From IMG/VR virus record IMGVR_UViG_3300032224_001028, positions 1 through 63,816 of that record: a DNA stretch of 63,816 bases; one strand, written 5' to 3'. The stretch comes from a virus (taxonomy: Duplodnaviria > Caudoviricetes). The first letter of the stretch is position 1. Every line of letters starts with the position of its first letter. Below the pieces are notes generated by a model that saw only the letters and a list, made by a program, of their open reading frames with translations, did not search any database and had not been told where the DNA came from. The position numbers were made by a program, and so were the translations under genes. Of the stretch, positions 28,818 through 63,816 are shown piece after piece.

Positions 28818-28855
28818 TTGTTGTCAGTTTCGTTGCGTCACGACTATTGGAATCG
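28818..28855 (+). promoter_or_regulatory. Early promoter motif copy
   Basis: TTGTTGTCA-N17-CTATTGGAATC-GTG. Confidence 0.75.
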
Positions 28856-42095: not shown

Positions 42096-43825
42096 GTCTG
42101 GATTCAGTAATCGAAACGAGTCCTGCTCTCTGGATGGCAACATCCGGAATCATTAAAAACAAGGCCGGCAATCTAGTTAGGCCCAAGCCGAATGATTTTC
42201 AGAAGTTCGTTTCGGAAGTGATTGAGTGGTGTATCGAAAATAACGAGCGTCCTAGAATAGTCATCCTTAAGCCTCGCCAAAAGGGATCCTCAACGGTTTC
42301 GTGCGCTTGCGTCTATACGTTCTTGCGTCGCTTCTCCGGAGCTAGGTGCGCCTTGATCGGGGATGAGTTGGATACGTCAAACAATCTTGCGGAAATCTTC
42401 AGCCGGTATGCAGACATGGACGATCACGCATGGGGCAACGAATGGCATAAGACTAAGTTGGCATTCTCAAACGATTCAAGTTGTCACAAGGAAACGGCAA
42501 ACGATCCACGGGCCGGCATGTCGTCCACCTTTCAAGTCGTCTTGGCGTCCGAGGTGGCACACTGGAAGAAGCGGGGAGAACGGAATGCCGAAAGCGTACT
42601 TCTTTCGATCCTGAATTGCGTACCCGATGAGCCGAAAACCCTAGTTATTGTTGAATCTACCCCGAACGGTGCGTCCGGTGCGTTTTATGAGAGGTGGCAA
42701 AAGGCAGTATGGTTTGAGGATTTCAAAAAAGGAAAGAAGGGGAACGGTTTCATCCGTGTCTTTTGGCCTTGGTATTCATTTGCGGATTCTGTCGAGACGT
42801 TGCCGGCTCAGAAAGAAGAGGAAATTAAGGAATCCCTCACGGATTCTGAGAGGAATCTGATGGGTTTGGGTGCGACGATACCGAATCTTGCATGGCGTCG
42901 CCGGATCGTGGGTGAGAAATGCGGTGGAGATGCCGAGCTTTTTAATCAGGAATACCCCACCGACGACGTTTCATGCTTCTTAACGTCTGGCCGGCCAAGG
43001 TTTGACCGGTCAGGGGTTGAAAGGATCGAGGTTCTTACCAGAAAGAAGCAGAGAACAGAGGGTGTTCTGGATCCTTCCGGTAATTCGGTTGTGTTCCGGC
43101 CTACCGGATCCGCCGAAGCGTGGCTATGGCTATGGGAAAAGCCTGAGTACGGTCGCCGGTATTTGATTGGTGTCGATACCATGACAGGGGCGAGTCAGGT
43201 AGCAGGATCCACAAGGGAGCCGGACTGTCATTCAGTGATAGTTTTGGCATCCGGAGCTTTCGTATTAGGCAAATGGATCCCGCCTTCCGTAGTTGGGAGG
43301 TTAAAACCACCTTGCAGGGTGGATATTGACGTTCTGGCCCTATTTGTGGACAGGCTTTCAAGGTTCTTTGGTGGTTGCATGGTCGTTCCAGAGGTAAATA
43401 ACTCCGGATTGGCCCTAATCGAACTACTTAAGGATGCTCAAACGCCGATTTACCAACGTGAAATCTTCAATTTACGTGAATCCAAGAAGGCGAAGGCACT
43501 TGGATGGCAAACAACCGAAAAGACAAGGACGCTAGCAATAGAAACACTAGCCACGGCAATCAGAGACGGGGATCTGGATGGTGGCGGAATCAATATCTAT
43601 TGCCCAAACATCCTTTCCGAACTTAAGACATTCGTAATTACGGACTCCGGCAAGGCCGAGGCGATGAGTGGGAATCACGACGACGATGTTTTGGCTTTAT
43701 CAATCGCAATAGCGACAATCGATGGCGCAACTCCCTATCTTGCACCGTCATCAACAAGAGGACTACCGAGAGATCTGCTCAACGCAGAGAAATCCATTCA
43801 GGCAAACCGCAGAAGCTATGCTTGA
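42092..43825 (+). CDS. terL: Terminase large subunit
   Basis: ILKPRQKGSST, LASEVA, VESTPNG, IGVD and HDDDV motifs. Confidence 0.92.
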   Translation: MSLDSVIETSPALWMATSGIIKNKAGNLVRPKPNDFQKFVSEVIEWCIENNERPRIVILKPRQKGSSTVSCACVYTFLRRFSGARCALIGDELDTSNNLAEIFSRYADMDDHAWGNEWHKTKLAFSNDSSCHKETANDPRAGMSSTFQVVLASEVAHWKKRGERNAESVLLSILNCVPDEPKTLVIVESTPNGASGAFYERWQKAVWFEDFKKGKKGNGFIRVFWPWYSFADSVETLPAQKEEEIKESLTDSERNLMGLGATIPNLAWRRRIVGEKCGGDAELFNQEYPTDDVSCFLTSGRPRFDRSGVERIEVLTRKKQRTEGVLDPSGNSVVFRPTGSAEAWLWLWEKPEYGRRYLIGVDTMTGASQVAGSTREPDCHSVIVLASGAFVLGKWIPPSVVGRLKPPCRVDIDVLALFVDRLSRFFGGCMVVPEVNNSGLALIELLKDAQTPIYQREIFNLRESKKAKALGWQTTEKTRTLAIETLATAIRDGDLDGGGINIYCPNILSELKTFVITDSGKAEAMSGNHDDDVLALSIAIATIDGATPYLAPSSTRGLPRDLLNAEKSIQANRRSYA

Positions 43826-48790: not shown

Positions 48791-51700
48791 ATGAGCCTAG
48801 AGAACATCTTCGATGACTCCAAGGGAGCTAGTCGCCTACCTGACTCTAAGAGCGTTGGGATCGACCCAGTTAAACTTGAGGATGTTAATTTTGACCCTAA
48901 AGAGGCGGATCCGGTGGAACCGACTGGTTCTGCCATGGCTTACGCTAGTCCGGTAAATCCAAACCCATCCGGAATCGATTTCAGGTTTATCAGGGATCCT
49001 TACGCCAGAAAGAACTTCAAGGGCGAGATCGATTACGCAAACAAAGCGGATCAATTCAATAGCAGGATTGAATCTGCTCAGGCCCAGCTAAAGGCTAGGG
49101 AAGAGAGAGCAAAGCAAGTAGCGGAGCTTAAGGCTCAAAAGCAACAGGAAGCAGATTTCAAGAAGGGAATGAATAGCGAAAAGGAAGGGCAATACAGGAA
49201 GGCAGGACAAAAGTTTTATACGGATGCTTTTGGTGACGTTCAGCCTCAAGTCAATGAAGAGAACAAGCCAATGTTTGAGCCTACTCCTTGGAAGATTCAA
49301 AAGGGGTTAGATGGGCGAAACGTAAAAACCCGTAGGAATGAGTTTGGGCAAATAGAGACTGAAGATCCTGACAAGGAAGCACCTATTGCAGAATCCAAGA
49401 TTAAACCAAACCAACTTTTCCGGAAGAACAAGCTATCGGAGGATCAATTTGTCGGAACAGTGGATGAAGGTCTTACCTCTGGTGACGAAACAATCCGAGG
49501 TGTGGCGGAACAGGCCAGAGAGAAGCAGAACGATAATCTTCTCAAAGAAACAAGGAACTCGTTTGTACGCCAAGAGCTTAAGGTTAAAGCAGATCTCGAC
49601 GATCATAAACTTCAGATGGCCCAGCTTGCCAAGGCGTCGCAGGAAAACGACATGCTTCCGGATTCGCCTGAGAAGCTAGCAAAGAAGGCTGAAATTGATA
49701 AGGCAATCGAGGACGGTGCGAAAAAAGCGCAAACAATTAGCGAATCACTGCTAGAGGCAAAAGCCCAGCGTGAGGATTTTGAGGCAAGCCAGAGTCTATC
49801 TGCATGGTCAAATGCTGAGAGGGCAAGACTAGATTTCTTGAGAAGCGACAGAGGCGCAGAATATCTAAAGCGAAAAGGAATTGATAGCCCTGAAAAGGAT
49901 CAGGTTTTAATTGATATTCGCAACAAGCTGAATGAGCAGGGCAGGAAAACCTTGGAGCAGTCTCAAAAAAAAACTGAAGATAGAACCCAGCTAGTCGGAA
50001 ACATGATGATTGACGGGGGGGCGCAACCCGAATCATCCAAAAAGAGTCCTGCTTTGCCGATGCAAGACACGGCCACGCTTAGAGAAGCCGATGACAAGTA
50101 CGAAAAACGGGTTAATGAAGCAAAAACGGTAGCAAACGAAATAGGCACAAAAGAAAATGAAAAAGTACGTGCATTATATTCGAATCTAAACGCTAGTGCC
50201 GATGCGGTTACTTCAATCGATAATCAACTCAAAGGATTGCAAGACCGGATGACGGAACTTAAGGCGATGACTGGCGGGAAGATGACTCCCGAAGTTGCCG
50301 GTCGAATCAATGCCTTGGCACAACAAGCAGAAAACCTTAACAAACAAAGGCAGGGGCATGTTGCCAAGTACGAGGAATCGAAGAGTATATTTGATAAGGA
50401 AGTAGGAACATTTGACGAGAAAGGCGGGTTCAAGTCGATTGGTACACGAATGGGGGCGATGTTTGACGCCCAACGCAGTCTTGAAATTGAAGCCAATAAA
50501 GCCGGACAAGAAAGAAACTCAGCCTACGAATCTTTACAGGCAAAGATCGAGCAACAGGCAAAGATTAAGCAGGATACTTTCAAGACAGTCGTAATGCCGA
50601 AGATCGATAGTGCGGTTCGGTCAATGGACGACAAGGCATTCGAGGCTTCAATGAAGGAAGCTACTGACCTTGGAATGGATAAGGAAGTTTCCGAATCGCT
50701 TCGGATGTACTACCAGCAAGCTAAGAAGAAGTATAACGGAAGCGATACAGATTTTTGGGATATGGATGTTTTCAACCTGATGCTTCGAAGTTCGCCGGCC
50801 ATGGGCATGCGTATGATTGGAGCTTTGGCAGATATTGTTGCTGGCGAGAACGATCCTAGAACTTGGTATGTCTTTGGTGAAACACACGAACAAAGGCAAG
50901 CAAGACTAACCTCGTTTGGCGGGGTTGGAGCAGAAACATTGTCACCGGACGTAAAGGCCGGATCCGTTTCAATGGGAATGGGTGACGGGGCAAGGGAAGT
51001 GAGTTTTGGGGAGCTTCTAAGAGAGGCAGAAAAAGCCAAGACAGGCAAATACGACAAGAATGCCGTTCCGGATCCATTTAATCAGGTAATGATTGGTGGA
51101 AGGACATACGATATTGGTACTACCAATTATTTTGTAAATAGCCTTCGCATGGCATCAGAGTATTTAAGAAAAGAAGCTAAAAATCTTGAAGAGGCTCTAC
51201 CGGTATCCGAACAGTTCCTATCAACGGACGTCGGGCAGTTTGCAAAAGGATTGGCAGAGCTTCCGGCTCAAATCGGGCCGGCATTTATTCCTTTTGTTGG
51301 CCCTGCGTTAATGGGAGGTACGGTTTCAGCAGGAATGTACGACGAATACATGCAGGATGCAGAACAAACTGCAATTAAGAACGGTACTGAGTTTGACAGG
51401 CTTTCGGCCCATCAGGGTGCATTAAACTATGTAGCAAAAGGCGCACCGGCTGAAATTGTCTCAAATCTATTAGAGATAAAACTTTTTAAGCTATTTAAGC
51501 CTTTGCTGAATAAAATTACCACAAAGGCACTTGCTGAAGCACTTGGCGGAACGGCAATTTCAGGACTTCTTGGTGGTGGCACTGAGGGATACCAGCAGTA
51601 CATGTTGAACCGCACCAAAAAGTATTTTGATAATATGCCAAATGTCGAACTCACAGATGATGTTTGGCAGAGCTTTAAGATAGGTGGAGCAGTGGAAATG

Positions 51701-54700
51701 TTTATTCCGGCTATGGTTGCCTTGGCTCAATCGGCTCAATCGCAAAACAAGAGATCTACTGATGTTCGTAAGATGATGGAGGATTTTGGGAAGGCTAAAG
51801 AAGAATCGTTGAATGCGCTTCCCGTTGGTCAAAGGGTTACAAATCCTGATCTTTCCGAATATACTCCTAAAGAGATAAGCAAACAGGAAACTAGATTAAA
51901 CTCCATTGATACACGGATTGCTTCTATCGAACTTGAGCTACCCAAGGCAAAGGGAGACAGGAAGCGGGATCTACTGAATGAGGGGGCGCAATTATACGCT
52001 CAAAGAAATCAGATTATCCCTACGGTTACTGTTGGTGCAGAGATGCAGAACCAGATTCAGGAAGAGCTTTCTAGGTTTCCGGCTCAGACCGTAACAGACG
52101 AAAAGGGCAAGGTTGTATCAGAAGCAAAGCTAGGCCCAGTACGGGCATTGGCTAAGTATGCCTCAGGAGCAGAGCTTTCGTTCGACGAAATGGCAGAAGA
52201 GCTTCCCGATGGATCTCCCGTATTCGGCAAAGACAAGAACGGGGCCGTCGTTGTGTCACAAAGGGCAATCGACCAGTATCGAAATACTGCCTCTACGATC
52301 TCTGCCCTAGCTCAAGGCAGGAGCGTACTGAACGCTCGGTCAATGCTTGAGGAAAAGCAGGATCAGCAAAAGGCAAAAACCACTTCAGTTGTCGCAAAAG
52401 ATCGCAAGGAGGAGTCCGGCAATCTGTTCAGGGTGCGGGTTACGGACACAGCAACGATGCAGGATCGTGAGGTAGATGTCCGTTCAGAATCTCCCGAAAG
52501 GGCTAGATTAACGATTGCGGGTAGTCCTAAGGATTACGGATTTGATGGTGGAATTAGGGTAGGGGAAGCAATCCCAGTGGGTGCGGGTGATAATAAACAG
52601 GGTGCAAATGTCGGCAAAGCGACAACAATGCCTCAAAATGCGTTCAGGAGGCCGATTACAGGCAAGGAAAGAACATCCTTGGTAAGATCCATTCTGGACG
52701 CCCCGCCTGAGCGTAGAAAGGCTTTACAGAAGATTTCTGAGTCCGTCGGTGGTCTTGTTGAAAACTACAAGAGCATGTTCGACTCGGTGGACTTCACCGC
52801 ACAGGACAATATCTCTGGTGGCGTACAGATCCGATTCTCACCTGACGGAAAGACAAGAAAGCTAGCGATTAGCCTTACCGGACTGCAAAGGGAGCTTCAA
52901 GGAGCCGAAAATCCCGATCAGGTACTTCTTGGGAAGTTTGTCGAGGAAGTTACTCATTCGGTTGGGGTTCAGGTTGTTTCGAGGGAGGAATCACAAAACA
53001 TTTCAAAAACGATGTCACCAAAACTCCGGAGAGCATTCGTTGATTCTTATTACGCATCAGAAAAATCCGCCGGCAAACAGGGCAAGATTAGCTCTGATAG
53101 CGCATTCTCTGGTGAGCTTACCGATTTAGAGCATTATGAAATAGGGCAAGAGTTCATACGAGCGATTGTCCAGAAGGATGAGCGTGTTTTGGGCTTCATG
53201 ACTGAAGAGGCTCAAACCAATCCGGAGTTTTTGCCCTACTTCATAAACGCACTTAAAAAGATCCTAGATGCGATAACTTCCGGTACGTACAAGATGGACG
53301 CTCCTTTAGCCAACGAAGCTAAAGAGCGAATCATCAGCATGATGGACAAGCTAGGAGCGTTAAACAAAATATCTGCGGATCGGGCGAAAATTGGCTATGG
53401 AAACAGTGCCAAGACAACCGACACTGCAACCGTTCAAGGGGTTCCCGCCACAGGATTACCTACTTCTGTTCCTCAGAATAGAAGTGGAGTTGGAACTGGA
53501 TCAGTTAGCCAAACGAATGAGGGAGGAACCACCGGAGCAAGTGGGTTGGCAGGATCTCCCGCTATTTCAACACAAGGACGTAGCTACAATGTAGCTACAC
53601 CAAAAAATACGATGAGCGTTCCCGTTCAAGGGAAACTCGTCGAATTGGGAGATCTAAAATCATCGGCTGGAACAAACCTTCAGCCACGGGATAGGACACG
53701 GGCGGGTAACAGGGAACAAGAGCTAAAAATTGCAAGGAATCCAAATCATGCGATGTGGGCTAGGCCGGCTTCAACTTCTGATACCGGTCTTACGATTGTA
53801 GGCAAGGATGGTCGTATTTATAGCGGTCACGGAAGGACAAACGCCAAGAACCTTGTCTATCAAATGGCCGAGACACCATCGGCAGATCAAGCATTAGGCC
53901 AAAAGAACGCTCAAGGGCTTAGGGATGAGATCAAGAACACGATGCGACAGATGGGCGAACCGGAATCGGAGATAGCAAAGGTCGATACAATGAAACGCCC
54001 CGACTACGTGGGTGTGTATCAGGGTGACGAGAATCCGAGCAAGATCCGGCAATTCGTCAGGGATTCAAACATCGAGGGGATGAGTGTAGCGGAACAAGCA
54101 TCATACGATGCGCTTGAGTTTATCGATAATCCCAAGCTGATCAGCAACCTACGGGCCGGATCGAATGGAGAGATACTTCTTAAGCGCAACGACAAGGTTT
54201 TATCAGATTTCTACAATGCAATCGGATCCCCTAGAGAGTTAAGGAAGAAAGATGGATCTTGGAGTAAGGCCATGGAAAGCAGGGTAATGGGCGCACTCAT
54301 GGCCCTTAACTTCGGTCAGAATAGCGATACTCTCATCACAACCCTTACGGAAGATGCTGAAAATCTCGGTCTTATTGGACTCCGTGCTGGACTTGTACAG
54401 GCTGGGCCTGATCTTGCGATTCTCGGTGATGGGGAATTGGACATTAAGCCAACCCTGACAAGGGCCGTGGAAGAGTTTGTTAAGTACAAAGAAAACGATG
54501 GGAAAATGGAGGACTTCTTAAGCCAAGGGAGACTCCAAGGGATTGAATCGGAAGCGTCACAAGAGACTGAGTTCATGATGAGAACCATCGCAGAGAATCC
54601 CACGGGCCGAGCGATTGGTGACTTCCTGAGAACCTATGCGGTTTCCGCAGTAGCCATGAAGCGAGAGCGTCAAGCCTACGGGGGTGGGATGTTCCCCGAA

Positions 54701-57700
54701 ACAGAAGTACCCCTCAATGTCATGGATGTTCTCAAAATGGCAACATCCATTGTATCAAAGGGTGATTCAACACAGACCCTTAGTAGTCCCGCAAGGAATA
54801 CCGCAGAGACGTTAGCCGGAAAACTTTCAGCATTTCTTGATCTTTCCAAGAATCCACAAAAGCAAAAAATCGCCCAATACGTTGCAAACTACCATAAAAA
54901 CGGTTTATACGGGCTAATCAATAAGATGCTTGAACCGGTTCCATCCGGAGCATCCCTGCCTCCTCAGGCATACCAATTTGAAGAGAGACTTGAGAAGATC
55001 CTTTCGGTTGGTGATCCGGCTATCGACATCACGCTTCCAGATGGCAACAAGGTAAAGCTGGACGGTGTAGGAGCAAGCAAGGTACTTGCGGGTTTCTTGG
55101 AAGGCGTAAGCAAGCAACAGGACAACTTTAGAGAACTGATTGGAAAGGTTACTGCCGGAAGAGACTGGGTTGCGCTAGTTGCCTCTCCCAAAAAGATGAA
55201 GAGGCTTGCCGAGAAAATAATTTTCGAAAAGAAGGGCATAGTTGCAGATGACGCAAAAGATATTCTTCGGGCCACGATTGCCGTCAATACATTGGATGAA
55301 ATGGATGAGGCGATTGCTGAAATCCAAAAATACGCAAGAGTAACGCAAGATAAGAAGAATCTTTATTTGGACACCGAGAACACTGGCTATGCCCACCGGT
55401 TAATTCTTATTCAATGGGACGGGTTAAATTGGGAGGCAGAAGTACAGATTAACTTACCCGAAATGTTGTTGGCTAAGGATATTGGACATCGTTTTTACGA
55501 AAAGATCCGTAGCCTTGAGGCTTTAGCTACAACTCTTCGAAATAATGAAGAAGTTCTGGCTATCGAACGTCAAATCGAAGAACTAAAAGAAAAGGTTAAT
55601 CAGGTTTGGCGAGGCGCACGGGACTTGATCACTAAACGCTTAAACGCATCCAAGGATCTTACCCGTGGAGCTTCAAACGTGGAGACAAGTGGAAATCGAG
55701 TAAGCGGAATATCATCGCAACGCCAAGCCCTTACTCCAAGTACTGCAACAGGGGTATCATCAACATCAAATAGTTCTGTTTTTGGATCCGAAATCAATTC
55801 TTCGAGATCCGGAGCCTTGGACGCTTCATCAGGTGTTGTTGGCATGACAACAATCAATAGCCAGAAATACGCAGTTCCGCAACCCGAAAGTATCGTTTAT
55901 GCAAATGTCGAGGATTTCAGGGGTACGGTGGATAGTTCTAGGTTGGCAAACGTTCCAGAAAACGAGGCTTCTCTTGGTACTATCTTCAATACAAAGGCAT
56001 CAGGATCATTCGTCGTTAAGCTAGATAAGCTGATTTCACCGGTAAATGAGCTTAACGACGAGGGATTTGTAGCAGGAAAGAAGGCGGATCCACGACAAAC
56101 AGCTATCAATCGCATGGTTTCAAACCTTGATGGAGAGACATTTACACCAAGAGAACCTATTGACCTTGCGGATAACGGTGATGGGACTTACACAATTATT
56201 GACGGAAATGCTACTGCCCAAGGACTTATGTTGGCAGGATGGCAAAATGCGGTTGGAGTTGTTAAGGAGTTTGCCCTTTCAGCCCCCCGTCGAAACACTC
56301 AAGACGCTAATCAATTAAGCCTATTTGACGAAACCGGAAGTGCTTCGGTGTTGTCAAACAGCAAACAAGGGGGTATTGAAAGTGGAGAACAATATGGACA
56401 ACCAAGAACAAGACAATCAACCGGAGAATCCGCCCAAACTCAGGACGGACTACGAGGGAGCGATGAGCTTTTTGGCGAATACGCCAACGGATCAACTCAA
56501 CCAACTAGCCAAGAATCCGGCACTCCTAGAGAAGTTTATTCTAGAGAGGTATCCGGAAACGGAATGGATTCAGTCGGACAACGAGGCGGAGTCGAGCCAA
56601 CAGGCGGAACTAGATCAGGAGACGGTGTACAAAGCGGAACGCAAGATGCTAATACTATCGACGGAGAATCCGGAAGAGTGGTCAGTAATCAAGACGGTGC
56701 TAGAGAAAATCTGCCCGTTCGATCTAAACCTACCGTAGAACGTCCTGCGGAGGGTTCGCCCGACAGAAATCACGAAATTGCCCCTGAGGACATACTTGCC
56801 CCAAGGGGTGACGTAACAAGACTCAAGACAAACATATCGGTAATTAAACTACTCAAGCAACTTGAGTCAGAGGACAGGAATGCAACGACTGAAGAGAAAA
56901 AGATCCTAGCTCAGTACGTAGGATGGGGTGGTTTGTCACAAGCCTTAGATGAAGATAAAGCAGAAAGAGCAAGTGACATGGATTTTCAGCGACGATACAT
57001 GGATGAGGAAACAATTAAGTCGATTGAAAACTGGAATAAGAAATACGGTAAGTATTACACTGAAGTAAAAGACCTTCTTTCTGAGGATGAGTTTAGATCT
57101 GCAAAGGCAAGTACAACTAATGCCCACTATACGTCGCCTCAGGTCATTAAATACATGTGGGATGCGGTCAGGAAACTGGGATTCGATGGCGGAACAGTAC
57201 TCGAACCCGCCGGTGGGGTTGGTCACTTCTTTGGGCTAATGCCGAAGGATATGGCCGATGCGTCCTACACAAAGGCCGTCGAGCTTGACTCTCTATCCGG
57301 AAGGATCATGCGGAAACTCTATCCCGAAACCGACGTTCAGATCACAGGATTTCAGGATGCAGAGATTCCTGATAATTCTATCGACCTTGCCATATCGAAC
57401 GTGCCTTTTGCCAATGTTGCAATATACGATGCCGGCCTTGAAGCGCAGGGTGCGCCCAAATTGTCACTTCATAACTATTTCTTTGCCAAGGCACTTGAGA
57501 AGGTTCGGCCCAGCGGGGTTATAGCCTTTATCACAACAAGCAATACTCTGGACGCCAACGTTGCTCAGAGGAAATGGATTGCAGACCACGGGGAACTAAT
57601 TGGCGCAGTAAGACTTCCAAACACTGCATTCAGCGAAAATGCAAATACAGAGGTCACCACGGACATTATTTTCATGAGAAAGCCGGACGGCAAGATGCCT

Positions 57701-60700
57701 AGCTTTAGTCCGGAGTCATTCAAAAGCACAAAAGAAGTGCCACTAGAGAACGGTGGAACAGTTAAGATCAATGAGTACTTCGCAAGCAATCCCGACATGA
57801 TTCTTGGCCGACTTGCCAACGACGGATCTATGTACGGGGGCAAGGAAGAGATGACGGTACATCCTTTTCAGGATGGCCGAACATTAGAGAGCGTTCTTAG
57901 TCAGTCCCTAGAGAAGTTGTCCGGAGACGTAATGGGCCAGAGCAAACCGGTCAATATGGACGCAGTAAGAAGCGAAGAAGCGATGAGGGGCAAGAAGGTT
58001 GGGACTCTGGCGATGCTTGAGGACGGGAAACTTGGCATAGCCGGAGTAGAAAACTCGGATGAAGAAATCCTTAGTCCAAAAAATCGGCCTATTGCCATGG
58101 GATTCATGCAAGTCAGGGACGCCCTGAATGAATTGTATCGGATGGAAATGGATCCGGAATCTCAGGACGCCGAGATTGAAGATCAACGGAAGGCACTAAA
58201 TGTTGCCTATGACAACTTTGTGGCACGGAATGGATCATTCCATGCAAATAGTAAGCTATTAGACTTTGATCCTGACTATTACCGGATCATAGGAGCCGAA
58301 AATGAGGTAAAGTCTGATAGCAAGGCCGAGAACGTTAAGAAGTTCCTGACTAGGAAAAAGAACTACACAAAGGGTGATATTTTCACAAAGCGGATCCTCA
58401 CCCCAAGGCAGGAGCCTACTTCTGCTTCATCCGTTGAGGATGCTATGGGCATATCCCTTGGATGGAAAGGCACTCTCGACACCGACTACATCGCCGGATT
58501 GGTTGGCAAGTCAAAAGAGGAGGTCGAGAAAGACATTCTTGGCAAGGGTATTGGGTTCAGGGATCCATCTACCGGTCTTGTGTCCACAAAGGAAGAATAC
58601 CTGAGTGGCAACGTAAGAAAGAAACTTAAGATAGCCGAGGAAAAGGCCAAAAAAGACAACAGTTACGAGGCAAACATTGAAGCATTAAAGAAAGTGCAAC
58701 CGGTGGATGTGCCATTCTCCGACATATCAATGAACCTTGGGGCGAACTGGATCCCGACGGACATTATTTCTGACTTTGGTAGAAGCATACTCAAGACACG
58801 GGTTACAGTAACGTACAGCAAGGGGGTCGGGGATGTTTCTTCAGATAGGTACACGGTTACTTACGGATCCGACGGCAAGGGCGCAAGATCAATGGCCGAT
58901 CTTCCCTCAGAAGCCACAAGCATCTACGGCACGGATAGAATGTCAGGAGTTCGACTGCTTGAGATGGCACTTAACATGCAAACGCCGATGGTATTTGACA
59001 CAATCGACGAAAAGAAGGTTTTGAATGCCGGTGAAACCGAAAAGGCAAAACTTGCCATGGAGAAGATCAAGGAATCTTTCGCCCAATACGCATCATCCAA
59101 GCCTGAAGTTTCTGAAGAACTCGCAAAACAGTACAACGAGAAGCGGAACTCCCATGCGTTACGTCAGTACGATGGTCAATTCCTCACATTCCCGTGGCTT
59201 GCTAAGGGATACGACTTATATCCAGACAAAAAGAACGTGGTTTGGAGGGCTATTCAGGACGGCAAAATGCTTATTGCTCACGGGGTTGGAGGAGGAAAGA
59301 CGGTCATCGGCACTGCTTTGACCATGGAACTTCGTCGCCTTGGACTAGCCAAGAAGCCGATGATCGTTGTCCATAACGCTACTTTGGAACAGTTTGCCGG
59401 AACGATTGGAAGAATGGCCCCGACTTCCCGTGTCCTTGTTGCCCGTAAAAAAGACTTCGAAAAGAGCAAGCGAAAGGAGTTTGTGGCGAAAATAGCCTCA
59501 GGAGACTGGGATGCGGTCGTGATGGCCCACTCAACATTTAACCAGATCAAAGACGATCCGGAATACGTAAAAAAGATTACCTATGAGCTTATAGATGAGC
59601 TTCGGGATGCAATCACTCAAACCATGAGTGAAAGCAACGAGGTGAGTCGTTACGGCAGGATCTCCAAAAAGAAAGATCCATCCGTAAAGGAGAAGGAGAA
59701 GCAGATCAAGAGGCTCGAAGAAAGACTCAAGCGAGTACAAGAGCGCAAGGTCGATGATGTCCTTACGTTCCAAGAACTAGGGGTGGACGCTATTATTCTG
59801 GACGAGGCGCATATCTACAAAAAGATGCCTTTCGTAACAAAGCTAAAGAATATCGCCGGCATCGATAATTCGCCCACCGAATCAGGAACAAGCTTATTAA
59901 CCAAAGCACGATTTATTCAGGAAAAGAACAAGGGCCGGAACATCTTCACGATGACTGGCACACCGGTAACAAATACCCTTGGTGAAGTTTGGAATCAGGT
60001 TCGCCTTATCGATCCCGAACTATTGGCCGAGTTTGGTTCATCTAGCTTTGATTCGTTTGTTTCTACATTTGCAGAGGTAGAGAGAAGTGCAGAGCTAAGG
60101 GCCAACGGAAAATATAAGAGCATCCAACGTCTATCGAAATTGGCTAACTTGCCTGAGTGGAACAAGATGTTCCGGACTAGAGCAGACGTCAAGATGGGCG
60201 GGGATATGGTCGTAAAGAACCGGCCTGAAATCAAAGATGGAAAACCTGACCTTATTGCGGTCGAGGCAACTCCTCAGGTAATCGAATACAAAAAGATTAT
60301 CGATAGAATCATCGATGATTTTGACAGCATGGATGGACGAGAAAAGAAGGAAAACAGTCATATTCCGCTAGTTACTTACAATGCTTGCAAACTTGCATCA
60401 ATCGACATGCGTTTGGTGGATGACAAGGCAAAGGATGAGGCGGGAAGTAAATCAAACACCATGATTGAAAAGGTGTTCGAACTTTACAAGAGAACGAATG
60501 ATTACAACGGAACCCAAGTAATCTTCTCTGATCGTTACCGGCCCATGAAAACGGAATCCTTGTCATTCAATGGATTGGATTCGGGCGTTGAAACTGATGA
60601 CAGTGAAGATTCGGGAATGGATCTTATTTCTGGTGCAAAAGAGGAAGAAAAAGAAGAGCGTGAAGCGGAATCCATGGGCGGATTCAACCTTTATACAGAC

Positions 60701-63700
60701 ATCAAAGAGAAGCTGATCAAAAAGGGAGTAAAGCCTGAAGAGATTGCAATTATTAACGATTTCAAGACCGATCAAGCAAAAGAGCAGTTATTCGAGAGGG
60801 TGAACAACGGAACTGTTCGTATCATTATCGGATCGACACAAAAGCTGGGAACTGGCGTGAATATGCAAGGCCGGATGATTGCCGGACATAACTTGGACGT
60901 GCCTTGGACTCCGGCAGAGATGGAGCAACGGGACGGGCGGGTAATCCGTCAGGGCAACATTCACTCAGAGCTTGGCATACCGGTCGAGATCTACCGGTAC
61001 GGTATGAAGGATACGTTGGATTCGGCCCTTTGGCAGAAGCTAGAGTTTAAGGAAAGATTCATTAAACAGGCATTGAGTGGCAAGATTAGCGGTCGTGTCA
61101 TTGAGGATGATTCGGGGCTACTCAGCCTAGCAGAGCAAAAGGCGATCTTGTCCGGCCCGATGGGGCTTGAGAAGTTTAACACCGAGACAAAGATCCGTGA
61201 GCTAGAAAATCAGGAACGGGCATGGGTGCAATCATCGTTCGATGCGATTCAGGCCGGCAAGACTGCCGAGCTTCAGGTTAAGGCATACGAAAACAGGCTT
61301 AACCAGACAAGGGAGTTCCTAAGCGAAGTATCAAACTGGACGCCTGAGCCTACGGCCATGATTGAAGGCGTAGCATTAACGAAAGAAAACGACATCCGTG
61401 ACGCTATTCAGGAGTACTTTGATAAGCGCAGAGATCAGGCCATCCAAACCGGAAAATCGTTCCGAGCATCAGTAGAAGCAAAGAAGCCTTTGGGAGAATT
61501 TACATACAATGGAACAAAAATAACTCTTTCGCCAGCTTCAGTAGATGAAGTGCTAGGTGAACCGGATCCCAAGAAAGCCATTAAGGTAGAAACCGGCGTC
61601 ATGGTCAATGGCCGTGACTTGGGTGCAAAGGTAAAGAGCGCAGGATACGTCGTGAGCGCATTAAGGGATCTCGTTAAGAACCTTAAGAGTTATGAGCAAC
61701 AGTTTATCAACGGCATGGGATCGGCCCAAGAAACGGCAGATTCAGCGACAATCGCATCCTCCAAGGCATTCCCAAGGAAGGAAGAGCTAGATGGTCTTAG
61801 AGCTAAATACGCTAAGATCATGGAGGATTACACGGACAAGGGTAAGACAAATAGGGTTGAAGCAGAGCAAATGCAGTTAAACGCTCCCGCCCTTACGCCA
61901 AGCAAGGCAAGCCTACTCTCCAAAGATGCTATGAACCTGATCGAGCCTATTGCTAGGTCGTTCGTTTCCCCGCAGACATCGCTAGACGAGGCTATTCAGA
62001 TTGGCCGGATCGCACTCATCAAAGCAGTGCAGGGATTCGATCCGAATGCCGGTGATTTTGATAAATACGCAAAGGCAGTAGTTCGGAACGCACTTAAAAA
62101 GAACTACTCAAGGAACGAGGCGTCGGCCCGTGAGATCTCCATGAGATCCATGAACATTGACTCTCCGGTGTCCGGAGAAAGCACGGCCCCGCTGGGTAGC
62201 ATCATTCCGGACGAAAACCAGAGCTTGCCGTCGCAGTCGGCGATTACAAACGACGCACAGAGGCTCATGCAAACCATGATTGACGGACTACCGGTGCGCC
62301 CACGGACGGTTGTATCGGCATACATGAACGGGGAAGGGGTTGCCCAAATCGCAGAAAAGATGGGCATTTCCCGCCAATACGCTTTGACGATGCTCAACAA
62401 TGCTCTCTCAGTACTCCGGAAAAGGTTGGCAAAGGTCGGGATCGAGGAAACCAAGGATCTCATCTCCGGATCCACACGGGAGATTATATCCAGACTGAAC
62501 GCACCGTTAAGAGCAATCACAACGGAAGAGGAGAAGGCTCAGGCCGAGTATCTCACCGAATTGGCCCAAAGCAGAGGATTGACGTTGGATCAGTTTGCCA
62601 CGGAAAGAATCGATGAGTTCCTAGATAGCGCAAAGGCATGGAGACAGGCGCATCCTATTCAAGATGATGACATGCAAGTACTTGGGGCTTCAAATAGGCG
62701 CATCAAATCAAAGTTCCTCACGCCAGTCAGCAAGAGATATGAGGCAGAACAGTTTGAACTAGCATTCGTTAAATCAATGGTAGAGGTGGCAGACAAAGAC
62801 CAAGCCGGAAAGCAGGACATGTCAGAAGAAGGCAAAGCATATCTAATCGATGTCCTTGCCGAGTATCTAGCGTCGAAAACGTCTTTGGATGAAGTGGCAA
62901 AGGGGCAGATCCAGACAGATAAAAGCTTAGATAAATACCCCGATCTCAAGTGGTCTTTTCAGAAGTTTGGTAAAATTGCAGATAAAAACTCTGCGTTTTA
63001 TGATCTCAGTCAGGAGAACAACAAGAAAATATGGGAAGCATATAAACTGCTTGAACAGAACGAAAATAACTCAGTAATCGCATTCGAAAACGACCAAGGC
63101 GACAAACTTCTAGTATCTAAAGCAATAATCAATCCTGAAGATAATGTCGGAATAAATGACTACAACTATAAAGAAGTTCCACTCACAGATTTCAGAAACA
63201 CCGCATACCGACTTACAAAATACACAAGCAGTTTTGGAATACTCGGTGCAATTACAAACCCAACGACAGTAATTACCCCCGAAGGAGACAGCATTACACC
63301 GGCTTGGCATTCATTCTTTCCAAATAAAACTCAGGCAGTGATGAGTGCGATGGGCATAAAGAACCCGCAAAGGGAGACGTACGACGATTACAAGCCTATG
63401 GAATCCTTATTCTCTCCCAGTCGGAATCCAGACATGGATGCAGTTGAGGAGTACATGGACTATCTAGGTAAAGAGTTGCCTGAAACGAATGAGCTAATCA
63501 ACAAGGCAGATAACGAACGTAACAGATTCAAAATCACAGGAAACCCAACGCTAGCCAACCCCGCTAAGGGCATGGGGCGCAACCTAGTGAATGCAGTGGA
63601 TGAGGCTCGAAAAGACATACTGCAACGCCGGCCAGACGTTATCGTGATGGCCGAGGCCCGTGCGCTACTCGCAAATGACGAGGAAGGCGTAAAGCGCATG

Positions 63701-63816
63701 TTGCTCGAAAGGGCAGTGGATCCATCCCAAGCCGGACTGCCTACCGACGTAGAGGTGCGATCCGCCAAGTTGCTTGTCGAAAAGCTGGCACGTAGGGCCA
63801 TGACTTCGGGCGACGA
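48791..63816 (+). CDS. Giant polyvalent protein (~5,919 aa including 1..2857), N-terminal and central part
   Basis: ATG at 48791; the ORF track reports no ORF in this frame, so no stop occurs before the window end; hand translation gives several coherent domains; frame continues into 5..2857. Confidence 0.9.
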   Translation, partial: MSLENIFDDSKGASRLPDSKSVGIDPVKLEDVNFDPKEADPVEPTGSAMAYASPVNPNPSGIDFRFIRDPYARKNFKGEIDYANKADQFNSRIESAQAQLKAREERAKQVAELKAQKQQEADFKKGMNSEKEGQYRKAGQKFYTDAFGDVQPQVNEENKPMFEPTPWKIQKGLDGRNVKTRRNEFGQIETEDPDKEAPIAESKIKPNQLFRKNKLSEDQFVGTVDEGLTSGDETIRGVAEQAREKQNDNLLKETRNSFVRQELKVKADLDDHKLQMAQLAKASQENDMLPDSPEKLAKKAEIDKAIEDGAKKAQTISESLLEAKAQREDFEASQSLSAWSNAERARLDFLRSDRGAEYLKRKGIDSPEKDQVLIDIRNKLNEQGRKTLEQSQKKTEDRTQLVGNMMIDGGAQPESSKKSPALPMQDTATLREADDKYEKRVNEAKTVANEIGTKENEKVRALYSNLNASADAVTSIDNQLKGLQDRMTELKAMTGGKMTPEVAGRINALAQQAENLNKQRQGHVAKYEESKSIFDKEVGTFDEKGGFKSIGTRMGAMFDAQRSLEIEANKAGQERNSAYESLQAKIEQQAKIKQDTFKTVVMPKIDSAVRSMDDKAFEASMKEATDLGMDKEVSESLRMYYQQAKKKYNGSDTDFWDMDVFNLMLRSSPAMGMRMIGALADIVAGENDPRTWYVFGETHEQRQARLTSFGGVGAETLSPDVKAGSVSMGMGDGAREVSFGELLREAEKAKTGKYDKNAVPDPFNQVMIGGRTYDIGTTNYFVNSLRMASEYLRKEAKNLEEALPVSEQFLSTDVGQFAKGLAELPAQIGPAFIPFVGPALMGGTVSAGMYDEYMQDAEQTAIKNGTEFDRLSAHQGALNYVAKGAPAEIVSNLLEIKLFKLFKPLLNKITTKALAEALGGTAISGLLGGGTEGYQQYMLNRTKKYFDNMPNVELTDDVWQSFKIGGAVEMFIPAMVALAQSAQSQNKRSTDVRKMMEDFGKAKEESLNALPVGQRVTNPDLSEYTPKEISKQETRLNSIDTRIASIELELPKAKGDRKRDLLNEGAQLYAQRNQIIPTVTVGAEMQNQIQEELSRFPAQTVTDEKGKVVSEAKLGPVRALAKYASGAELSFDEMAEELPDGSPVFGKDKNGAVVVSQRAIDQYRNTASTISALAQGRSVLNARSMLEEKQDQQKAKTTSVVAKDRKEESGNLFRVRVTDTATMQDREVDVRSESPERARLTIAGSPKDYGFDGGIRVGEAIPVGAGDNKQGANVGKATTMPQNAFRRPITGKERTSLVRSILDAPPERRKALQKISESVGGLVENYKSMFDSVDFTAQDNISGGVQIRFSPDGKTRKLAISLTGLQRELQGAENPDQVLLGKFVEEVTHSVGVQVVSREESQNISKTMSPKLRRAFVDSYYASEKSAGKQGKISSDSAFSGELTDLEHYEIGQEFIRAIVQKDERVLGFMTEEAQTNPEFLPYFINALKKILDAITSGTYKMDAPLANEAKERIISMMDKLGALNKISADRAKIGYGNSAKTTDTATVQGVPATGLPTSVPQNRSGVGTGSVSQTNEGGTTGASGLAGSPAISTQGRSYNVATPKNTMSVPVQGKLVELGDLKSSAGTNLQPRDRTRAGNREQELKIARNPNHAMWARPASTSDTGLTIVGKDGRIYSGHGRTNAKNLVYQMAETPSADQALGQKNAQGLRDEIKNTMRQMGEPESEIAKVDTMKRPDYVGVYQGDENPSKIRQFVRDSNIEGMSVAEQASYDALEFIDNPKLISNLRAGSNGEILLKRNDKVLSDFYNAIGSPRELRKKDGSWSKAMESRVMGALMALNFGQNSDTLITTLTEDAENLGLIGLRAGLVQAGPDLAILGDGELDIKPTLTRAVEEFVKYKENDGKMEDFLSQGRLQGIESEASQETEFMMRTIAENPTGRAIGDFLRTYAVSAVAMKRERQAYGGGMFPETEVPLNVMDVLKMATSIVSKGDSTQTLSSPARNTAETLAGKLSAFLDLSKNPQKQKIAQYVANYHKNGLYGLINKMLEPVPSGASLPPQAYQFEERLEKILSVGDPAIDITLPDGNKVKLDGVGASKVLAGFLEGVSKQQDNFRELIGKVTAGRDWVALVASPKKMKRLAEKIIFEKKGIVADDAKDILRATIAVNTLDEMDEAIAEIQKYARVTQDKKNLYLDTENTGYAHRLILIQWDGLNWEAEVQINLPEMLLAKDIGHRFYEKIRSLEALATTLRNNEEVLAIERQIEELKEKVNQVWRGARDLITKRLNASKDLTRGASNVETSGNRVSGISSQRQALTPSTATGVSSTSNSSVFGSEINSSRSGALDASSGVVGMTTINSQKYAVPQPESIVYANVEDFRGTVDSSRLANVPENEASLGTIFNTKASGSFVVKLDKLISPVNELNDEGFVAGKKADPRQTAINRMVSNLDGETFTPREPIDLADNGDGTYTIIDGNATAQGLMLAGWQNAVGVVKEFALSAPRRNTQDANQLSLFDETGSASVLSNSKQGGIESGEQYGQPRTRQSTGESAQTQDGLRGSDELFGEYANGSTQPTSQESGTPREVYSREVSGNGMDSVGQRGGVEPTGGTRSGDGVQSGTQDANTIDGESGRVVSNQDGARENLPVRSKPTVERPAEGSPDRNHEIAPEDILAPRGDVTRLKTNISVIKLLKQLESEDRNATTEEKKILAQYVGWGGLSQALDEDKAERASDMDFQRRYMDEETIKSIENWNKKYGKYYTEVKDLLSEDEFRSAKASTTNAHYTSPQVIKYMWDAVRKLGFDGGTVLEPAGGVGHFFGLMPKDMADASYTKAVELDSLSGRIMRKLYPETDVQITGFQDAEIPDNSIDLAISNVPFANVAIYDAGLEAQGAPKLSLHNYFFAKALEKVRPSGVIAFITTSNTLDANVAQRKWIADHGELIGAVRLPNTAFSENANTEVTTDIIFMRKPDGKMPSFSPESFKSTKEVPLENGGTVKINEYFASNPDMILGRLANDGSMYGGKEEMTVHPFQDGRTLESVLSQSLEKLSGDVMGQSKPVNMDAVRSEEAMRGKKVGTLAMLEDGKLGIAGVENSDEEILSPKNRPIAMGFMQVRDALNELYRMEMDPESQDAEIEDQRKALNVAYDNFVARNGSFHANSKLLDFDPDYYRIIGAENEVKSDSKAENVKKFLTRKKNYTKGDIFTKRILTPRQEPTSASSVEDAMGISLGWKGTLDTDYIAGLVGKSKEEVEKDILGKGIGFRDPSTGLVSTKEEYLSGNVRKKLKIAEEKAKKDNSYEANIEALKKVQPVDVPFSDISMNLGANWIPTDIISDFGRSILKTRVTVTYSKGVGDVSSDRYTVTYGSDGKGARSMADLPSEATSIYGTDRMSGVRLLEMALNMQTPMVFDTIDEKKVLNAGETEKAKLAMEKIKESFAQYASSKPEVSEELAKQYNEKRNSHALRQYDGQFLTFPWLAKGYDLYPDKKNVVWRAIQDGKMLIAHGVGGGKTVIGTALTMELRRLGLAKKPMIVVHNATLEQFAGTIGRMAPTSRVLVARKKDFEKSKRKEFVAKIASGDWDAVVMAHSTFNQIKDDPEYVKKITYELIDELRDAITQTMSESNEVSRYGRISKKKDPSVKEKEKQIKRLEERLKRVQERKVDDVLTFQELGVDAIILDEAHIYKKMPFVTKLKNIAGIDNSPTESGTSLLTKARFIQEKNKGRNIFTMTGTPVTNTLGEVWNQVRLIDPELLAEFGSSSFDSFVSTFAEVERSAELRANGKYKSIQRLSKLANLPEWNKMFRTRADVKMGGDMVVKNRPEIKDGKPDLIAVEATPQVIEYKKIIDRIIDDFDSMDGREKKENSHIPLVTYNACKLASIDMRLVDDKAKDEAGSKSNTMIEKVFELYKRTNDYNGTQVIFSDRYRPMKTESLSFNGLDSGVETDDSEDSGMDLISGAKEEEKEEREAESMGGFNLYTDIKEKLIKKGVKPEEIAIINDFKTDQAKEQLFERVNNGTVRIIIGSTQKLGTGVNMQGRMIAGHNLDVPWTPAEMEQRDGRVIRQGNIHSELGIPVEIYRYGMKDTLDSALWQKLEFKERFIKQALSGKISGRVIEDDSGLLSLAEQKAILSGPMGLEKFNTETKIRELENQERAWVQSSFDAIQAGKTAELQVKAYENRLNQTREFLSEVSNWTPEPTAMIEGVALTKENDIRDAIQEYFDKRRDQAIQTGKSFRASVEAKKPLGEFTYNGTKITLSPASVDEVLGEPDPKKAIKVETGVMVNGRDLGAKVKSAGYVVSALRDLVKNLKSYEQQFINGMGSAQETADSATIASSKAFPRKEELDGLRAKYAKIMEDYTDKGKTNRVEAEQMQLNAPALTPSKASLLSKDAMNLIEPIARSFVSPQTSLDEAIQIGRIALIKAVQGFDPNAGDFDKYAKAVVRNALKKNYSRNEASAREISMRSMNIDSPVSGESTAPLGSIIPDENQSLPSQSAITNDAQRLMQTMIDGLPVRPRTVVSAYMNGEGVAQIAEKMGISRQYALTMLNNALSVLRKRLAKVGIEETKDLISGSTREIISRLNAPLRAITTEEEKAQAEYLTELAQSRGLTLDQFATERIDEFLDSAKAWRQAHPIQDDDMQVLGASNRRIKSKFLTPVSKRYEAEQFELAFVKSMVEVADKDQAGKQDMSEEGKAYLIDVLAEYLASKTSLDEVAKGQIQTDKSLDKYPDLKWSFQKFGKIADKNSAFYDLSQENNKKIWEAYKLLEQNENNSVIAFENDQGDKLLVSKAIINPEDNVGINDYNYKEVPLTDFRNTAYRLTKYTSSFGILGAITNPTTVITPEGDSITPAWHSFFPNKTQAVMSAMGIKNPQRETYDDYKPMESLFSPSRNPDMDAVEEYMDYLGKELPETNELINKADNERNRFKITGNPTLANPAKGMGRNLVNAVDEARKDILQRRPDVIVMAEARALLANDEEGVKRMLLERAVDPSQAGLPTDVEVRSAKLLVEKLARRAMTSGD
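52700..53370 (+). other. Domain: zincin-like metallopeptidase variant
   Basis: FVEEVTHSV (EExxH) at ~52940 and a downstream GQEFIRAIVQ helix. Confidence 0.45.
53406..53594 (+). CDS. Candidate overprinted gene (+1 frame) in giant-ORF linker
   Basis: CTGCGG-N16-CTATGGAAACA-GTG; host frame is a T/G/S linker here. Confidence 0.45.
   Translation: MPRQPTLQPFKGFPPQDYLLLFLRIEVELELDQLAKRMREEPPEQVGWQDLPLFQHKDVATM
53580..54700 (+). other. Domain: DdrB-like ParB
   Basis: LQPRDRTR...Q...IA...TSDTG..IVGKDG..YSGHGRT. Confidence 0.75.
55100..55620 (+). other. Domain: RelA/SpoT nucleotidyltransferase (toxSAS-like)
   Basis: KKMKRLAEK, KDILRATI, TGYAH, EVQI and AKDIGHRFYEKIR motifs. Confidence 0.8.
55600..55845 (-). 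CDS. Candidate antisense-overprinted gene (81 aa), possible antitoxin
   Basis: MPTTPDEASKAPDLEELISDPKTELFDVDDTPVAV...; TTGCGG-N17-TATTGA upstream; sense frame is an S/T-rich linker. Confidence 0.6.
   Translation of the reverse strand: MPTTPDEASKAPDLEELISDPKTELFDVDDTPVAVLGVRAWRCDDIPLTRFPLVSTFEAPRVRSLDAFKRLVIKSRAPRQT
55900..56275 (+). other. Domain: ParB/sulfiredoxin-like
   Basis: PREPIDLADNGDGTYTIIDGNAT. Confidence 0.65.
56382..56738 (+). CDS. Candidate overprinted gene (+1 frame; GTG 56382 or ATG 56394)
   Basis: TGTTGTCA-N17-TATTGAA promoter motif; GGAG RBS; helical acidic product. Confidence 0.65.
   Translation: MENNMDNQEQDNQPENPPKLRTDYEGAMSFLANTPTDQLNQLAKNPALLEKFILERYPETEWIQSDNEAESSQQAELDQETVYKAERKMLILSTENPEEWSVIKTVLEKICPFDLNLP
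56760..57930 (+). other. Domain: DarB-like N6-adenine DNA methyltransferase
   Basis: YVGWGG, NAHYT, VLEPAGGVG (57203), VELD and ISNVPF (57398) motifs. Confidence 0.9.
58000..61250 (+). other. Domain: DarB-like SNF2/SF2 helicase
   Basis: AHGVGGGKT (~59280), DEAH (59801), TGTPVTN, GTGVNMQ and EQRDGRVIRQGN motifs. Confidence 0.9.
61889..62460 (+). other. Domain: sigma-70-family factor (regions 2 and 4)
   Basis: LIEPIARSF..SLDEAIQIGRIALIKAVQGFDP..FDKYA...VRNAL; LPVRPRTVV...GEGVAQIAEKMGISRQY....NNALSVLRKRL. Confidence 0.85.
63694..63816. repeat. Terminal direct repeat (assembly overlap), copy 2
   Basis: Identical to 1-123. Confidence 0.97.

Follow-up and report, generated by a model that had tools for sequence, protein, structure and literature searches.

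The window, that is the whole stretch of DNA analysed here, is the entire contig (63,816 nucleotides, nt) of an uncultured freshwater phage of the Caudoviricetes, IMG/VR record IMGVR_UViG_3300032224_001028. Within it a sigma-70-family module is located on the plus strand at 61877..62506, inside a giant open reading frame (ORF) that lies between genes for DNA packaging and genes for the head. The record is given in the source database as 100% complete with direct terminal repeats, and the first 123 nt of the contig are an identical overlap with the last 123, i.e., the assembly is circular. This matters for the size of the giant gene. Its first part (48791..63816, plus strand; amino acids (aa) 1-5008) runs off the 3' end of the window, its last 123 nt repeating window positions 1-123, and its continuation past the circular junction (1..2857, plus strand) is in frame from nt 2 and ends at a stop codon at 2855-2857. 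When the 5,008 codons of 48791-63814 are joined to 2-2857 and the overlap is left out, a protein of 5,919 aa results, which is larger than could be seen in the earlier note on this DNA. Two relatives, P0003 (5,921 aa, 94.6% identical) and P0004 (5,901 aa, 85.2% identical), match this protein over its full length and the long reading frame is therefore real and conserved. The sigma module makes up residues 4363-4572 of it.

The earlier note had described 61877-62506 as a complete sigma-like segment, and this description holds. The translation contains DEAIQIGRIALIKAVQGFDP, FDKYA and IAEKMGISRQ, and with the whole-factor NCBIfam model TIGR02937 it scores 65.4 bits (cut-off 42.9), the match covering positions 13-165 of the 165 in the profile. 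Sigma domain 2 (regions 2.1-2.4) is found at 61937..62116 on the plus strand, where the Pfam model Sigma70_r2 (PF04542) aligns to aa 21-80 of the module with 35.1 bits (36.8 in a six-frame scan; cut-off 24). Sigma domain 4, a helix-turn-helix, follows at 62264..62428 on the same strand; it matches PF08281 and PF04545 with scores slightly below their cut-offs, is covered by the TIGR02937 match and is modelled with a predicted local distance difference test (pLDDT) score of 96-98. In PHROGs the best family is phrog_351, "RNA polymerase sigma factor" (E 1e-18), and a sequence search of the PDB with the module returned 27 distinct sequences, every one a sigma factor. Residues 86-130 of the module align in that search to region 3.2 of SigA and RpoS, from which it follows that the module consists of regions 2, 3.2 and 4 without a sigma3 domain. 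AlphaFold2, supplied with 86 free-standing relatives, gave a model of mean pLDDT 87.8 in which helical bundles lie at aa 8-89 and 118-186 of the module. Foldseek found 122 matches to this model in the PDB at E <= 0.001, and the 50 that are listed are all sigma factors or complexes of RNA polymerase and sigma, with a probability of 1.00. The template modelling scores are low (0.31-0.40) because the relative orientation of the two sigma domains is free. A tyrosine of region 2.3 is retained as read from the alignment. Taken together, the module is almost certainly a real and functional sigma fold.

The module is under strong purifying selection. Relative to the genome G001 (locus L004) the sigma segment carries 42 synonymous and 3 non-synonymous differences, and its ratio of non-synonymous to synonymous substitution rates (dN/dS) is 0.018. 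Over the gene, with 4,480 codons aligned, the ratio is 0.082, and in the stretch of 300 residues past the sigma it is 0.104; all of these figures come from one pairwise comparison, that of the window with G001. Domain 4 including its recognition helix is conserved like domain 2, with 1 non-synonymous against 13 synonymous differences. In P0003 and P0004 the sigma segment is 99% and 90% identical to that of the window.

Around the sigma module the giant protein is composed of recognizable blocks. A ddrB-like ParB domain (aa 1606-1711; 53606..53923, plus strand) matches PF18763 with 50.7-52.9 bits (cut-off 27.6), a family that was defined on polyvalent proteins. It is followed by a DarB-like N6-methylase and SNF2/helicase block (56381..61867, plus strand), in which phrog_10089, "DarB-like antirestriction", is matched three times (E 8.8e-141, 9.3e-178 and 1.3e-104; profile positions 1471-3221 of 4647), Pfam models ResIII, SNF2-rel_dom and Helicase_C score above their cut-offs and Eco57I is weak. 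Downstream of the sigma a C-terminal module of about 1,000-1,050 aa, mostly alpha-helical, opens at LFSPSRN (63398..63816, plus strand, and on to 124-2857). It matches phrog_6651, "internal virion protein", with E 7.6e-8, and contains the strongly conserved motifs W-I-N-x-I-L-S-G-P-Q-T-H, F-P-F-V-R-T-P-Y-N, E-G-D-D-D-D-D and L-V-P-N-I-I-R-Q-P-L-R. Its AlphaFold model is poor (pLDDT 61.2, predicted template modelling score 0.37), no fold match was found in the PDB at E <= 0.001 and a PDB sequence search gave nothing below E 0.2.

Some further features of the C-terminal module may be recorded here. It contains a weak second helix-turn-helix of the sigma-4/LuxR-like kind at window positions 536-730 (aa 179-243 of the piece encoded by 2-2857; 10.7 bits), which is kept in 16 of 17 aligned relatives and is the source of weak "sigma" hits in loci that have no sigma. 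The domain LPD3 was found in two relatives of the C-terminal module only, the metagenome-assembled genome (MAG) contigs L012 and L026 (121.6 and 38.7 bits). LPD38, which had been suggested by a protein atlas, was not confirmed, as a six-frame search gave no match and its control was silent in every genome.

The gene neighbourhood is that of a head module. The large terminase subunit (42092..43825, plus strand; phrog_24361, E 9.4e-15) forms the upstream boundary, and it is followed by three ORFs, the giant gene and an SU10-type portal gene (2899..5001, plus strand; PF23899, E 2.5e-29; phrog_1216, E 1.1e-25) that begins 42 nt past the stop codon of the giant gene; the major capsid gene lies at 10407. 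Neither megablast with the region nor tblastn with the portal identified a near relative among deposited phage records, and tRNA genes or Rfam families were not found in the genome.

The same sigma module recurs inside other very large proteins. When 1.84 billion representative proteins were searched exhaustively with the module by HMMER, 1,426 hits reached E <= 0.001 but no hit reached E <= 1e-30, and the relatives described here are the best 150 of these hits. Thirty-nine of the 150 are 1,000 aa or longer. One protein, P0006, was dropped as a sigma-bearing giant as it is a repeat protein that scores by accumulation. At least 38 distant giants (1,014-6,277 aa) each have one internal sigma module with 25-36% identity to that of the window. 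By BLASTP the common order of blocks is ParB, methylase-SNF2, sigma and C-terminal module; 26 of the 38 giants share the C-terminal module and 13 the helicase block, the other 25 having a sigma without a helicase block. Here and in several relatives the sigma follows directly on the SNF2 block and single BLASTP alignments span both.

Recurrence was also followed from the C-terminal module. In IMG/VR, 315 stretches encode relatives of it, from which 74 loci were kept and, with six near-identical loci set aside, 68 viral loci were counted. A strong sigma match (E < 1e-30) is present within 3 kb upstream and in the same open frame in at least 17 of these 68 loci; the true number may be higher, as the upstream flank of some loci is truncated. 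Among bacterial assemblies a sigma in the same frame was found in only two of 24 loci, L012 (a Verrucomicrobiales MAG) and L026 (a Victivallaceae MAG). As it is present in some loci only, the sigma appears to be an optional cassette of a larger protein family. On a tree of sigma segments (152 rows, P0006 left out) 35 of the 41 giant rows fall in one half, together with 40 small proteins, and the giant label is clustered, with 16 changes compared to 36.1 in shuffles. A tblastn search with the module of 50,697 phage records gave four small uncultured records (23.5-27% identity) and no isolated phage.

It had further been claimed that the sigma resides in a giant virion protein. That the protein is giant is confirmed, and its place in the virion is indicated indirectly, by the position between terminase and portal, by the matches to phrog_10089 and phrog_6651 and by the scarcity of cysteine. 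This residue occurs once in the 5,919 aa of the giant protein, compared to 119 times in the 11,269 aa (1.06%) of 39 other ORFs of the genome (binomial 3e-26). Three ORFs directly upstream of the giant gene (45738-46121, 46159-48198 and 48212-48556) lack it altogether. A set of 40 giants contains 29 cysteines in 162,313 aa (0.018%), as against 208 in 25,079 aa (0.83%) in the small sigma relatives. By analogy with other proteins that are translocated, such avoidance may be the mark of a protein that is kept competent for unfolding and free of disulfides during storage in, and threading from, the particle. We infer packaging and ejection from the homology to virion-borne DarB-like proteins together with this cysteine avoidance, and the giant protein is probably virion-borne. 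Two glycine-rich, moderately hydrophobic segments in the N-terminal third (51281-51340 and 51671-51739; aa 831-849 and 961-982; Kyte-Doolittle values of 1.3-1.4 over 19 aa) were also noticed, and these may be membrane-active parts of an ejection protein.

The boundaries of the sigma module are marked by a short repeated peptide. As had been noted before, the tetrapeptide LNAP brackets both ends of the module, at 61877..61888 (plus strand, residue 4363) and 62495..62506 (plus strand, residue 4569). In the entire 5,919-aa protein LNAP occurs exactly twice, compared to 0.08 occurrences expected from composition. When free-standing relatives of 200-250 aa are laid along the LNAP-bounded piece, their N-termini map to positions of about 5-15 and their C-termini to about 195-215; the piece is thus the size of a whole sigma factor, and a C-terminal tail motif, G-[IF]-x(3-5)-D-x-x-hydrophobic-L-x-S, is common to the free-standing relatives and the bracketed piece. 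Similar short peptides stand at other edges of homology blocks, namely LSSPARN (residue 1997), LSAPRRN (residue 2496) and LFSPSRN (residue 4873). The more general pattern L-x-[AS]-P has 8 sites in the protein compared to 3.04 in shuffles, with 9 of 1,000 shuffles reaching 8, and five of the eight are at homology-block edges. The pattern is suggestive of a junction or processing code; we do not claim cleavage.

Right after LSAPRRN, and ahead of a disordered linker, the pentapeptide QLSLF is found (56312..56326, plus strand), which we take to be the consensus of the beta sliding-clamp-binding pentapeptide. The combined stretch LSAPRRN-TQDAN-QLSLF spans 56276-56326 (aa 2496-2512). In the hexapeptide form D-x-x-Q-L-x-L-x-F such motifs number 11 in the 38 distant giants compared to 0.95 expected, and in nine of the distant giants a clamp-binding-like QLxLxF lies 10-25 aa upstream of the sigma. 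The motif could be a tether to the clamp or part of the junction signal.

The TTGTTGTCA-N17-CTAT sites named in the earlier note are real, with five exact copies compared to 0.00 expected. All five lie within 24348-28847, ahead of small ORFs in an early-looking region. The site at 24348..24377 is on the minus strand and is the divergent partner of that at 24420..24449 (plus strand); the others, at 25537..25566, 27083..27112 and 28818..28847, are on the plus strand. When the sites are aligned, an A-rich tract upstream is common to them along with the two boxes, a GTGAA follows roughly 7 nt past the second box, and an AAACCTC(C) leader is present in three of the five; at the 25537 site both GTGAA and the AAACCTC leader are conserved. 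G001 retains four exact sites, which differ from those of the window in the spacers only. In contrast, canonical sites of the TTGACA/TATAAT type are not enriched in the region 20-40 kb (13 compared to 19.4 +/- 3.8 in shuffles). The five sites are good candidates for early promoters.

Other sequence features were observed in the early region and elsewhere in the genome. Imperfect palindromes, TTGTTGNCA-N5-TGACAACAA, are found at 9276-9298, 23555-23577, 33300-33322, 37912-37934, 40902-40924 and 46133-46155, mostly between genes or at gene ends, and one of their halves is identical to the first box of the promoter-like sites; a dimeric regulator may use them as operators, or they may be weak hairpins. 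The leader that follows three of the sites reads ACTATNGNA-N3-GTGAAC-GAAAAAAACCTCC (25562-25591, 27108-27137 and 28843-28872). Contigs from related strains have unlike sequence straight after this leader, with joints at 25591 and 28890 and a further joint at 27356. As replacement occurs right after the leader, the unit of promoter and leader seems to mark the border of a module, the early region being a mosaic. Pieces of this region are also present in the RNA libraries X11 and X20, as assembled contigs, which give neither starts nor strand nor proof of transcription.

No further sigma factor and no multisubunit RNA polymerase gene was found in six-frame scans of the 63.8-kb genome, in line with the earlier reading. 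The scans gave one match to Sigma70_r2 and one to Sigma70_r4, both in the giant ORF. An Rpb1-type domain, as in multisubunit RNA polymerases, was not found in the genome, and the control for this search rang in 14 of 14 genomes. A T7/N4-type polymerase (PF00940) likewise gave no match in the genome, but in this case the control was silent in every genome. A novel polymerase might conceivably be hidden in unannotated parts of the genome. Ten ORFs of the early region were scanned and no transcription factor, sigma or anti-sigma family was found among them; all that these ORFs gave was DUF3846, DUF932 and a methyltransferase domain.

Among bacterial assemblies the C-terminal module has its nearest relatives in L012, L014 and L026, which belong to Verrucomicrobiales, Chthoniobacterales and Victivallaceae bins, respectively. 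As pointers to the host, such Verrucomicrobiota or Lentisphaerota bins are leads only. More distant relatives of the C-terminal module, without a sigma, lie within large Sphingomonas and Hoeflea contigs, and on account of this location they look like prophages. The protein of L026 has a weak match to Peptidase_S49 (21.4 bits; cut-off 24.9). Contigs 90-99% identical to the phage of the window are found in freshwater and lake metagenomes. Elsewhere in the genome two adjacent ORFs (13788-14480 and 14492-15061) are built mostly of four-residue repeats, N-E-N-R with roughly 40 copies and G-T-S-T with roughly 30, which belong to the 12-nt tandem repeat family D1.

Contact with core RNA polymerase was approached by prediction of a complex between residues 1-100 of the module and residues 230-340 of Escherichia coli beta-prime, the latter as a stand-in partner. 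The pair scored 0.52, the best of three controls 0.01, the agreement of contacts between runs was 51% or better and the pLDDT of the partner 68 or higher. The mark used for this prediction is reached by 58 of 80 solved complexes and by 2 of 110 mismatches, and scores of 0.60 or lower comprise just 7 of the 80 solved complexes and both of the passing mismatches. Core binding as suggested in the earlier note therefore receives weak support from this score: the likeness to solved pairs of sigma and beta-prime stands, and binding itself does not follow, because sigma with beta-prime is a textbook pair of which many complexes have been solved, and because a stand-in took the place of the partner.

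These findings are best explained by a sigma module that is carried as a cargo domain within an internal head protein of the polyvalent, DarB-like kind. In the mechanism that we propose, the 5,919-aa protein would be made late, alongside the head genes, would be packed into the capsid and would exit the particle together with the DNA when the next cell is infected. In the new cell sigma domain 2 would bind the host core RNA polymerase, the sigma acting either when cut free near the two LNAP motifs or while still tethered to the SNF2 motor. The polymerase would be directed to promoters of the phage, the likeliest being the five TTGTTGTCA-N17-CTAT sites in front of the early-looking block of genes, and phage transcription would thus begin without new protein synthesis and without the host housekeeping sigma. 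Core binding, cleavage and the pairing of the sigma with the five sites we infer. That a packaged sigma acts after its delivery into the host has, in our view, about an even chance of being right. It is tempting to speculate further that a whole lineage of uncultured podophages, possibly on Verrucomicrobiota and their kin, injects a sigma that is stored in the capsid as a cassette of a cysteine-free polyvalent protein and is freed at short junction peptides (here L-N-A/S-P). Within seconds after the DNA enters, this sigma would turn the host core polymerase into an enzyme specific for the phage, which would read private early promoters with no need for host sigma or fresh translation; this fuller version is put forward only tentatively.

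A number of observations weigh against this scheme or parts of it. Within the module, the two domain 4 models of Pfam remain under their thresholds, Sigma70_r4_2 just so (25.3 bits at aa 130-166; cut-off 25.7) and Sigma70_r4 with 18.1-20.8 bits (cut-off 24.1). The positions that presumably correspond to the tryptophan pair of sigma-70 region 2.3, next after the retained tyrosine, are A and V, and the predicted complex of sigma and beta-prime is a weak pass. On the sigma tree the three-row clade of the window is placed in the other half, on a long branch (0.85) and apart from the main giant-rich group, so that a single origin of the giant sigmas is not shown. Regarding release, both close relatives, P0003 and P0004, carry LNSP at the second site (the first is LNAP), Pfam scans that covered the giant protein and ten ORFs near the head genes, those from portal to capsid among them, identified no peptidase family, and the giant protein has neither HExxH nor HxxEH; that the sigma is released by cutting at LNAP is rather doubtful. 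As to the promoter-like sites, TTGTCA, the -35-like box, is one letter off the housekeeping consensus TTGACA and CTAT-type -10 boxes are used by the housekeeping sigmas of some bacteria, and for these reasons the five sites could be host promoters. In five distant sigma-bearing genomes (G005-G009) TTGTTGTCA is not enriched (0, 0, 0, 1 and 2 copies) and a scan for over-represented 9-mers in the same genomes gave no clear common promoter class; with respect to co-variation of sigma and promoter these scans are no evidence either way. Because of the likeness to TTGACA and the occurrence of TTGTTGTCA as a palindrome half-site, either the phage sigma or the host housekeeping sigma may read the five sites. 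That they are targets of the phage sigma we consider somewhat less likely than not.

Other explanations that accept a module of sigma-like fold differ in what it does and when. It is conceivable that the delivered module binds the host polymerase without promoter specificity, serving as a docking handle that connects the polymerase with the incoming DNA end and the SNF2 motor, perhaps as an aid in pulling in or clearing the genome, or that it soaks up core or a host anti-sigma and so shuts down transcription of the host. Its place directly after the SNF2 block, here and in several relatives, the loss of the aromatic pair of region 2.3, and the QLxLxF that precedes the sigma in nine distant giants and hints at tethering would all agree with a handle. 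However, domain 4 is conserved like domain 2 although it would be needless in a handle that merely binds core, 25 of the 38 giants have the sigma without a helicase block, and a set of two-box promoter-like sites is present in the genome; we regard this explanation as unlikely. Still less can be said for the view that the segment is a decaying or structural passenger of domain shuffling with no role in transcription. Polyvalent proteins do shuffle their domains freely, and the presence of the sigma in only 17 of 68 viral loci and two of 24 bacterial-assembly loci with the C-terminal module agrees with a passenger, but a dN/dS of 0.018, below the gene average, a predicted fold that is confident and complete, and the same position in 38 distant giants among the best 150 of 1,426 hits make this highly improbable.

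A different possibility is that the sigma acts in the cell in which it is produced. The giant protein, or a fragment of it, would be made late and would drive or boost late transcription by its sigma domain, as T4 gp55 and other free phage sigmas do, and packaging, if any, would be irrelevant to this function. The gene lies in a late-looking head module, and the phage sigmas known so far serve genes of the middle or late phase. T4 late transcription is clamp-activated, and the clamp-binding-like motifs beside the sigma in relatives recall it. Yet the repeated two-box sites are confined to the early-looking block, with none ahead of the head genes, and a late sigma encoded inside a late operon cannot start that operon. 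It is also hard to explain why a regulator required in catalytic amounts should be embedded in a 650-kDa, nearly cysteine-free, DarB-like head protein unless it travels with it, and action in the producing cell is accordingly considered quite improbable. A further idea is that the sigma is delivered and active, but that the five sites are promoters of the host housekeeping sigma and the phage sigma serves other, unrecognized sites. TTGTCA with a 17-nt spacer is near the TTGACA-N17 housekeeping layout, the upstream tract is A-rich and UP-like, and TTGTTGTCA is also a palindrome half-site (at 23555, 37912, 40902 and others), which fits the operator of a dimeric regulator better than a sigma element. 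Against this, (A/G)CTAT as a -10-like box has little in common with TATAAT, enrichment of canonical sites is not seen, the boxes are invariant between relatives whereas the spacers vary, and no other repeated promoter-like class was seen in the genome. We judge this idea less likely than not. A sigma carried as cargo of the internal head protein is still the explanation that we prefer, and if it is correct this phage may bring its own promoter-recognition subunit into the host.

The concept of transcription being supplied by an injected protein is not new. Polyvalent proteins are predicted to enter the host with the DNA, and "jump-starting transcription" has been named as one of their themes, represented by an N4-like RNA polymerase and by host-modifying enzymes (Iyer, Burroughs, Anand, de Souza and Aravind, 2017; PMC5512222). 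In the main text of that paper sigma does not occur, either as a word or as the Greek letter (PMC5512222). The giant protein of the window resembles polyvalent proteins in that disparate activities (ddrB-ParB, methylase, SNF2 helicase and sigma) are combined in one ORF encoded in the head module. It differs from a frequent, although not universal, theme among them in having no zincin-like peptidase, the proposed processing enzyme.

There is also a likeness to DarB, a family that has been found in virions of P1 and JC1 by mass spectrometry. DarB of P1 is described as a head protein whose gene stands beside that of the portal and which is believed to reach the cell interior (PMC9024508), and in podovirus JC1 the DarB-like gp69 (4,515 aa) is reported with 51 unique peptides from mass spectrometry of CsCl-purified virions (PMC9144972). 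The block of methylase and helicase is shared with P1 DarB and with the DarB-like proteins of about 4,500 aa of Bcep22-like podoviruses, and the giant gene adjoins the portal gene as darB does in P1. Unlike the known members of this family, which are described as antirestriction proteins, the protein of the window has a sigma as cargo. As no isolated phage was matched by tblastn, the sigma cargo is not a described part of the DarB family.

Free-standing sigma factors, which redirect the core polymerase of the host, are well known from phages, as T4 gp55, which serves late transcription, and SPO1 gp28. Others are gp36 of phiEco32 (PMC12276001, PMC4281155), whose relative SU10 has a portal type similar to that of the phage of the window, and the sigmas of group 2 jumbo phages, which are described as free-standing (PMC7824862). 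The module shares with these that it is a sigma-70-family protein encoded by a phage, and matches phrog_351. However, the free phage sigmas are separate small genes whose expression follows infection and whose targets are genes of the middle or late phase, and here the sigma, with no gene to itself, is residues 4363-4572 of a head-module protein. A full-text search of the literature found no description of a virion-borne or injected sigma, and the novelty is one of a new cargo for a known kind of protein, the polyvalent protein.

In logic the proposed system would equal that of gp50 of N4, the virion RNA polymerase, where a giant head-packaged protein brings in transcription machinery (PMC5512222). 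The difference is that N4 delivers a whole single-subunit polymerase, whereas the phage of the window would deliver only a specificity subunit and borrow the catalytic core of the host. N4 early genes are read without host sigma-70. Complete RNA polymerases are injected also by crAss-like and phiKZ-like phages, and Alt of T4 is an enzyme that modifies the host polymerase. If the proposal is true, transcription initiation factors would join the list of polyvalent-protein cargo, and because the family is broad (38 clusters in the best 150 hits and 315 viral stretches with the C-terminal module) confirmation would have a wide bearing. The three known ways for a phage to begin transcription are from promoters for host sigma-70, by an injected complete RNA polymerase or by injected enzymes that modify the host polymerase, and delivery of the specificity subunit alone would be a fourth and much cheaper strategy.

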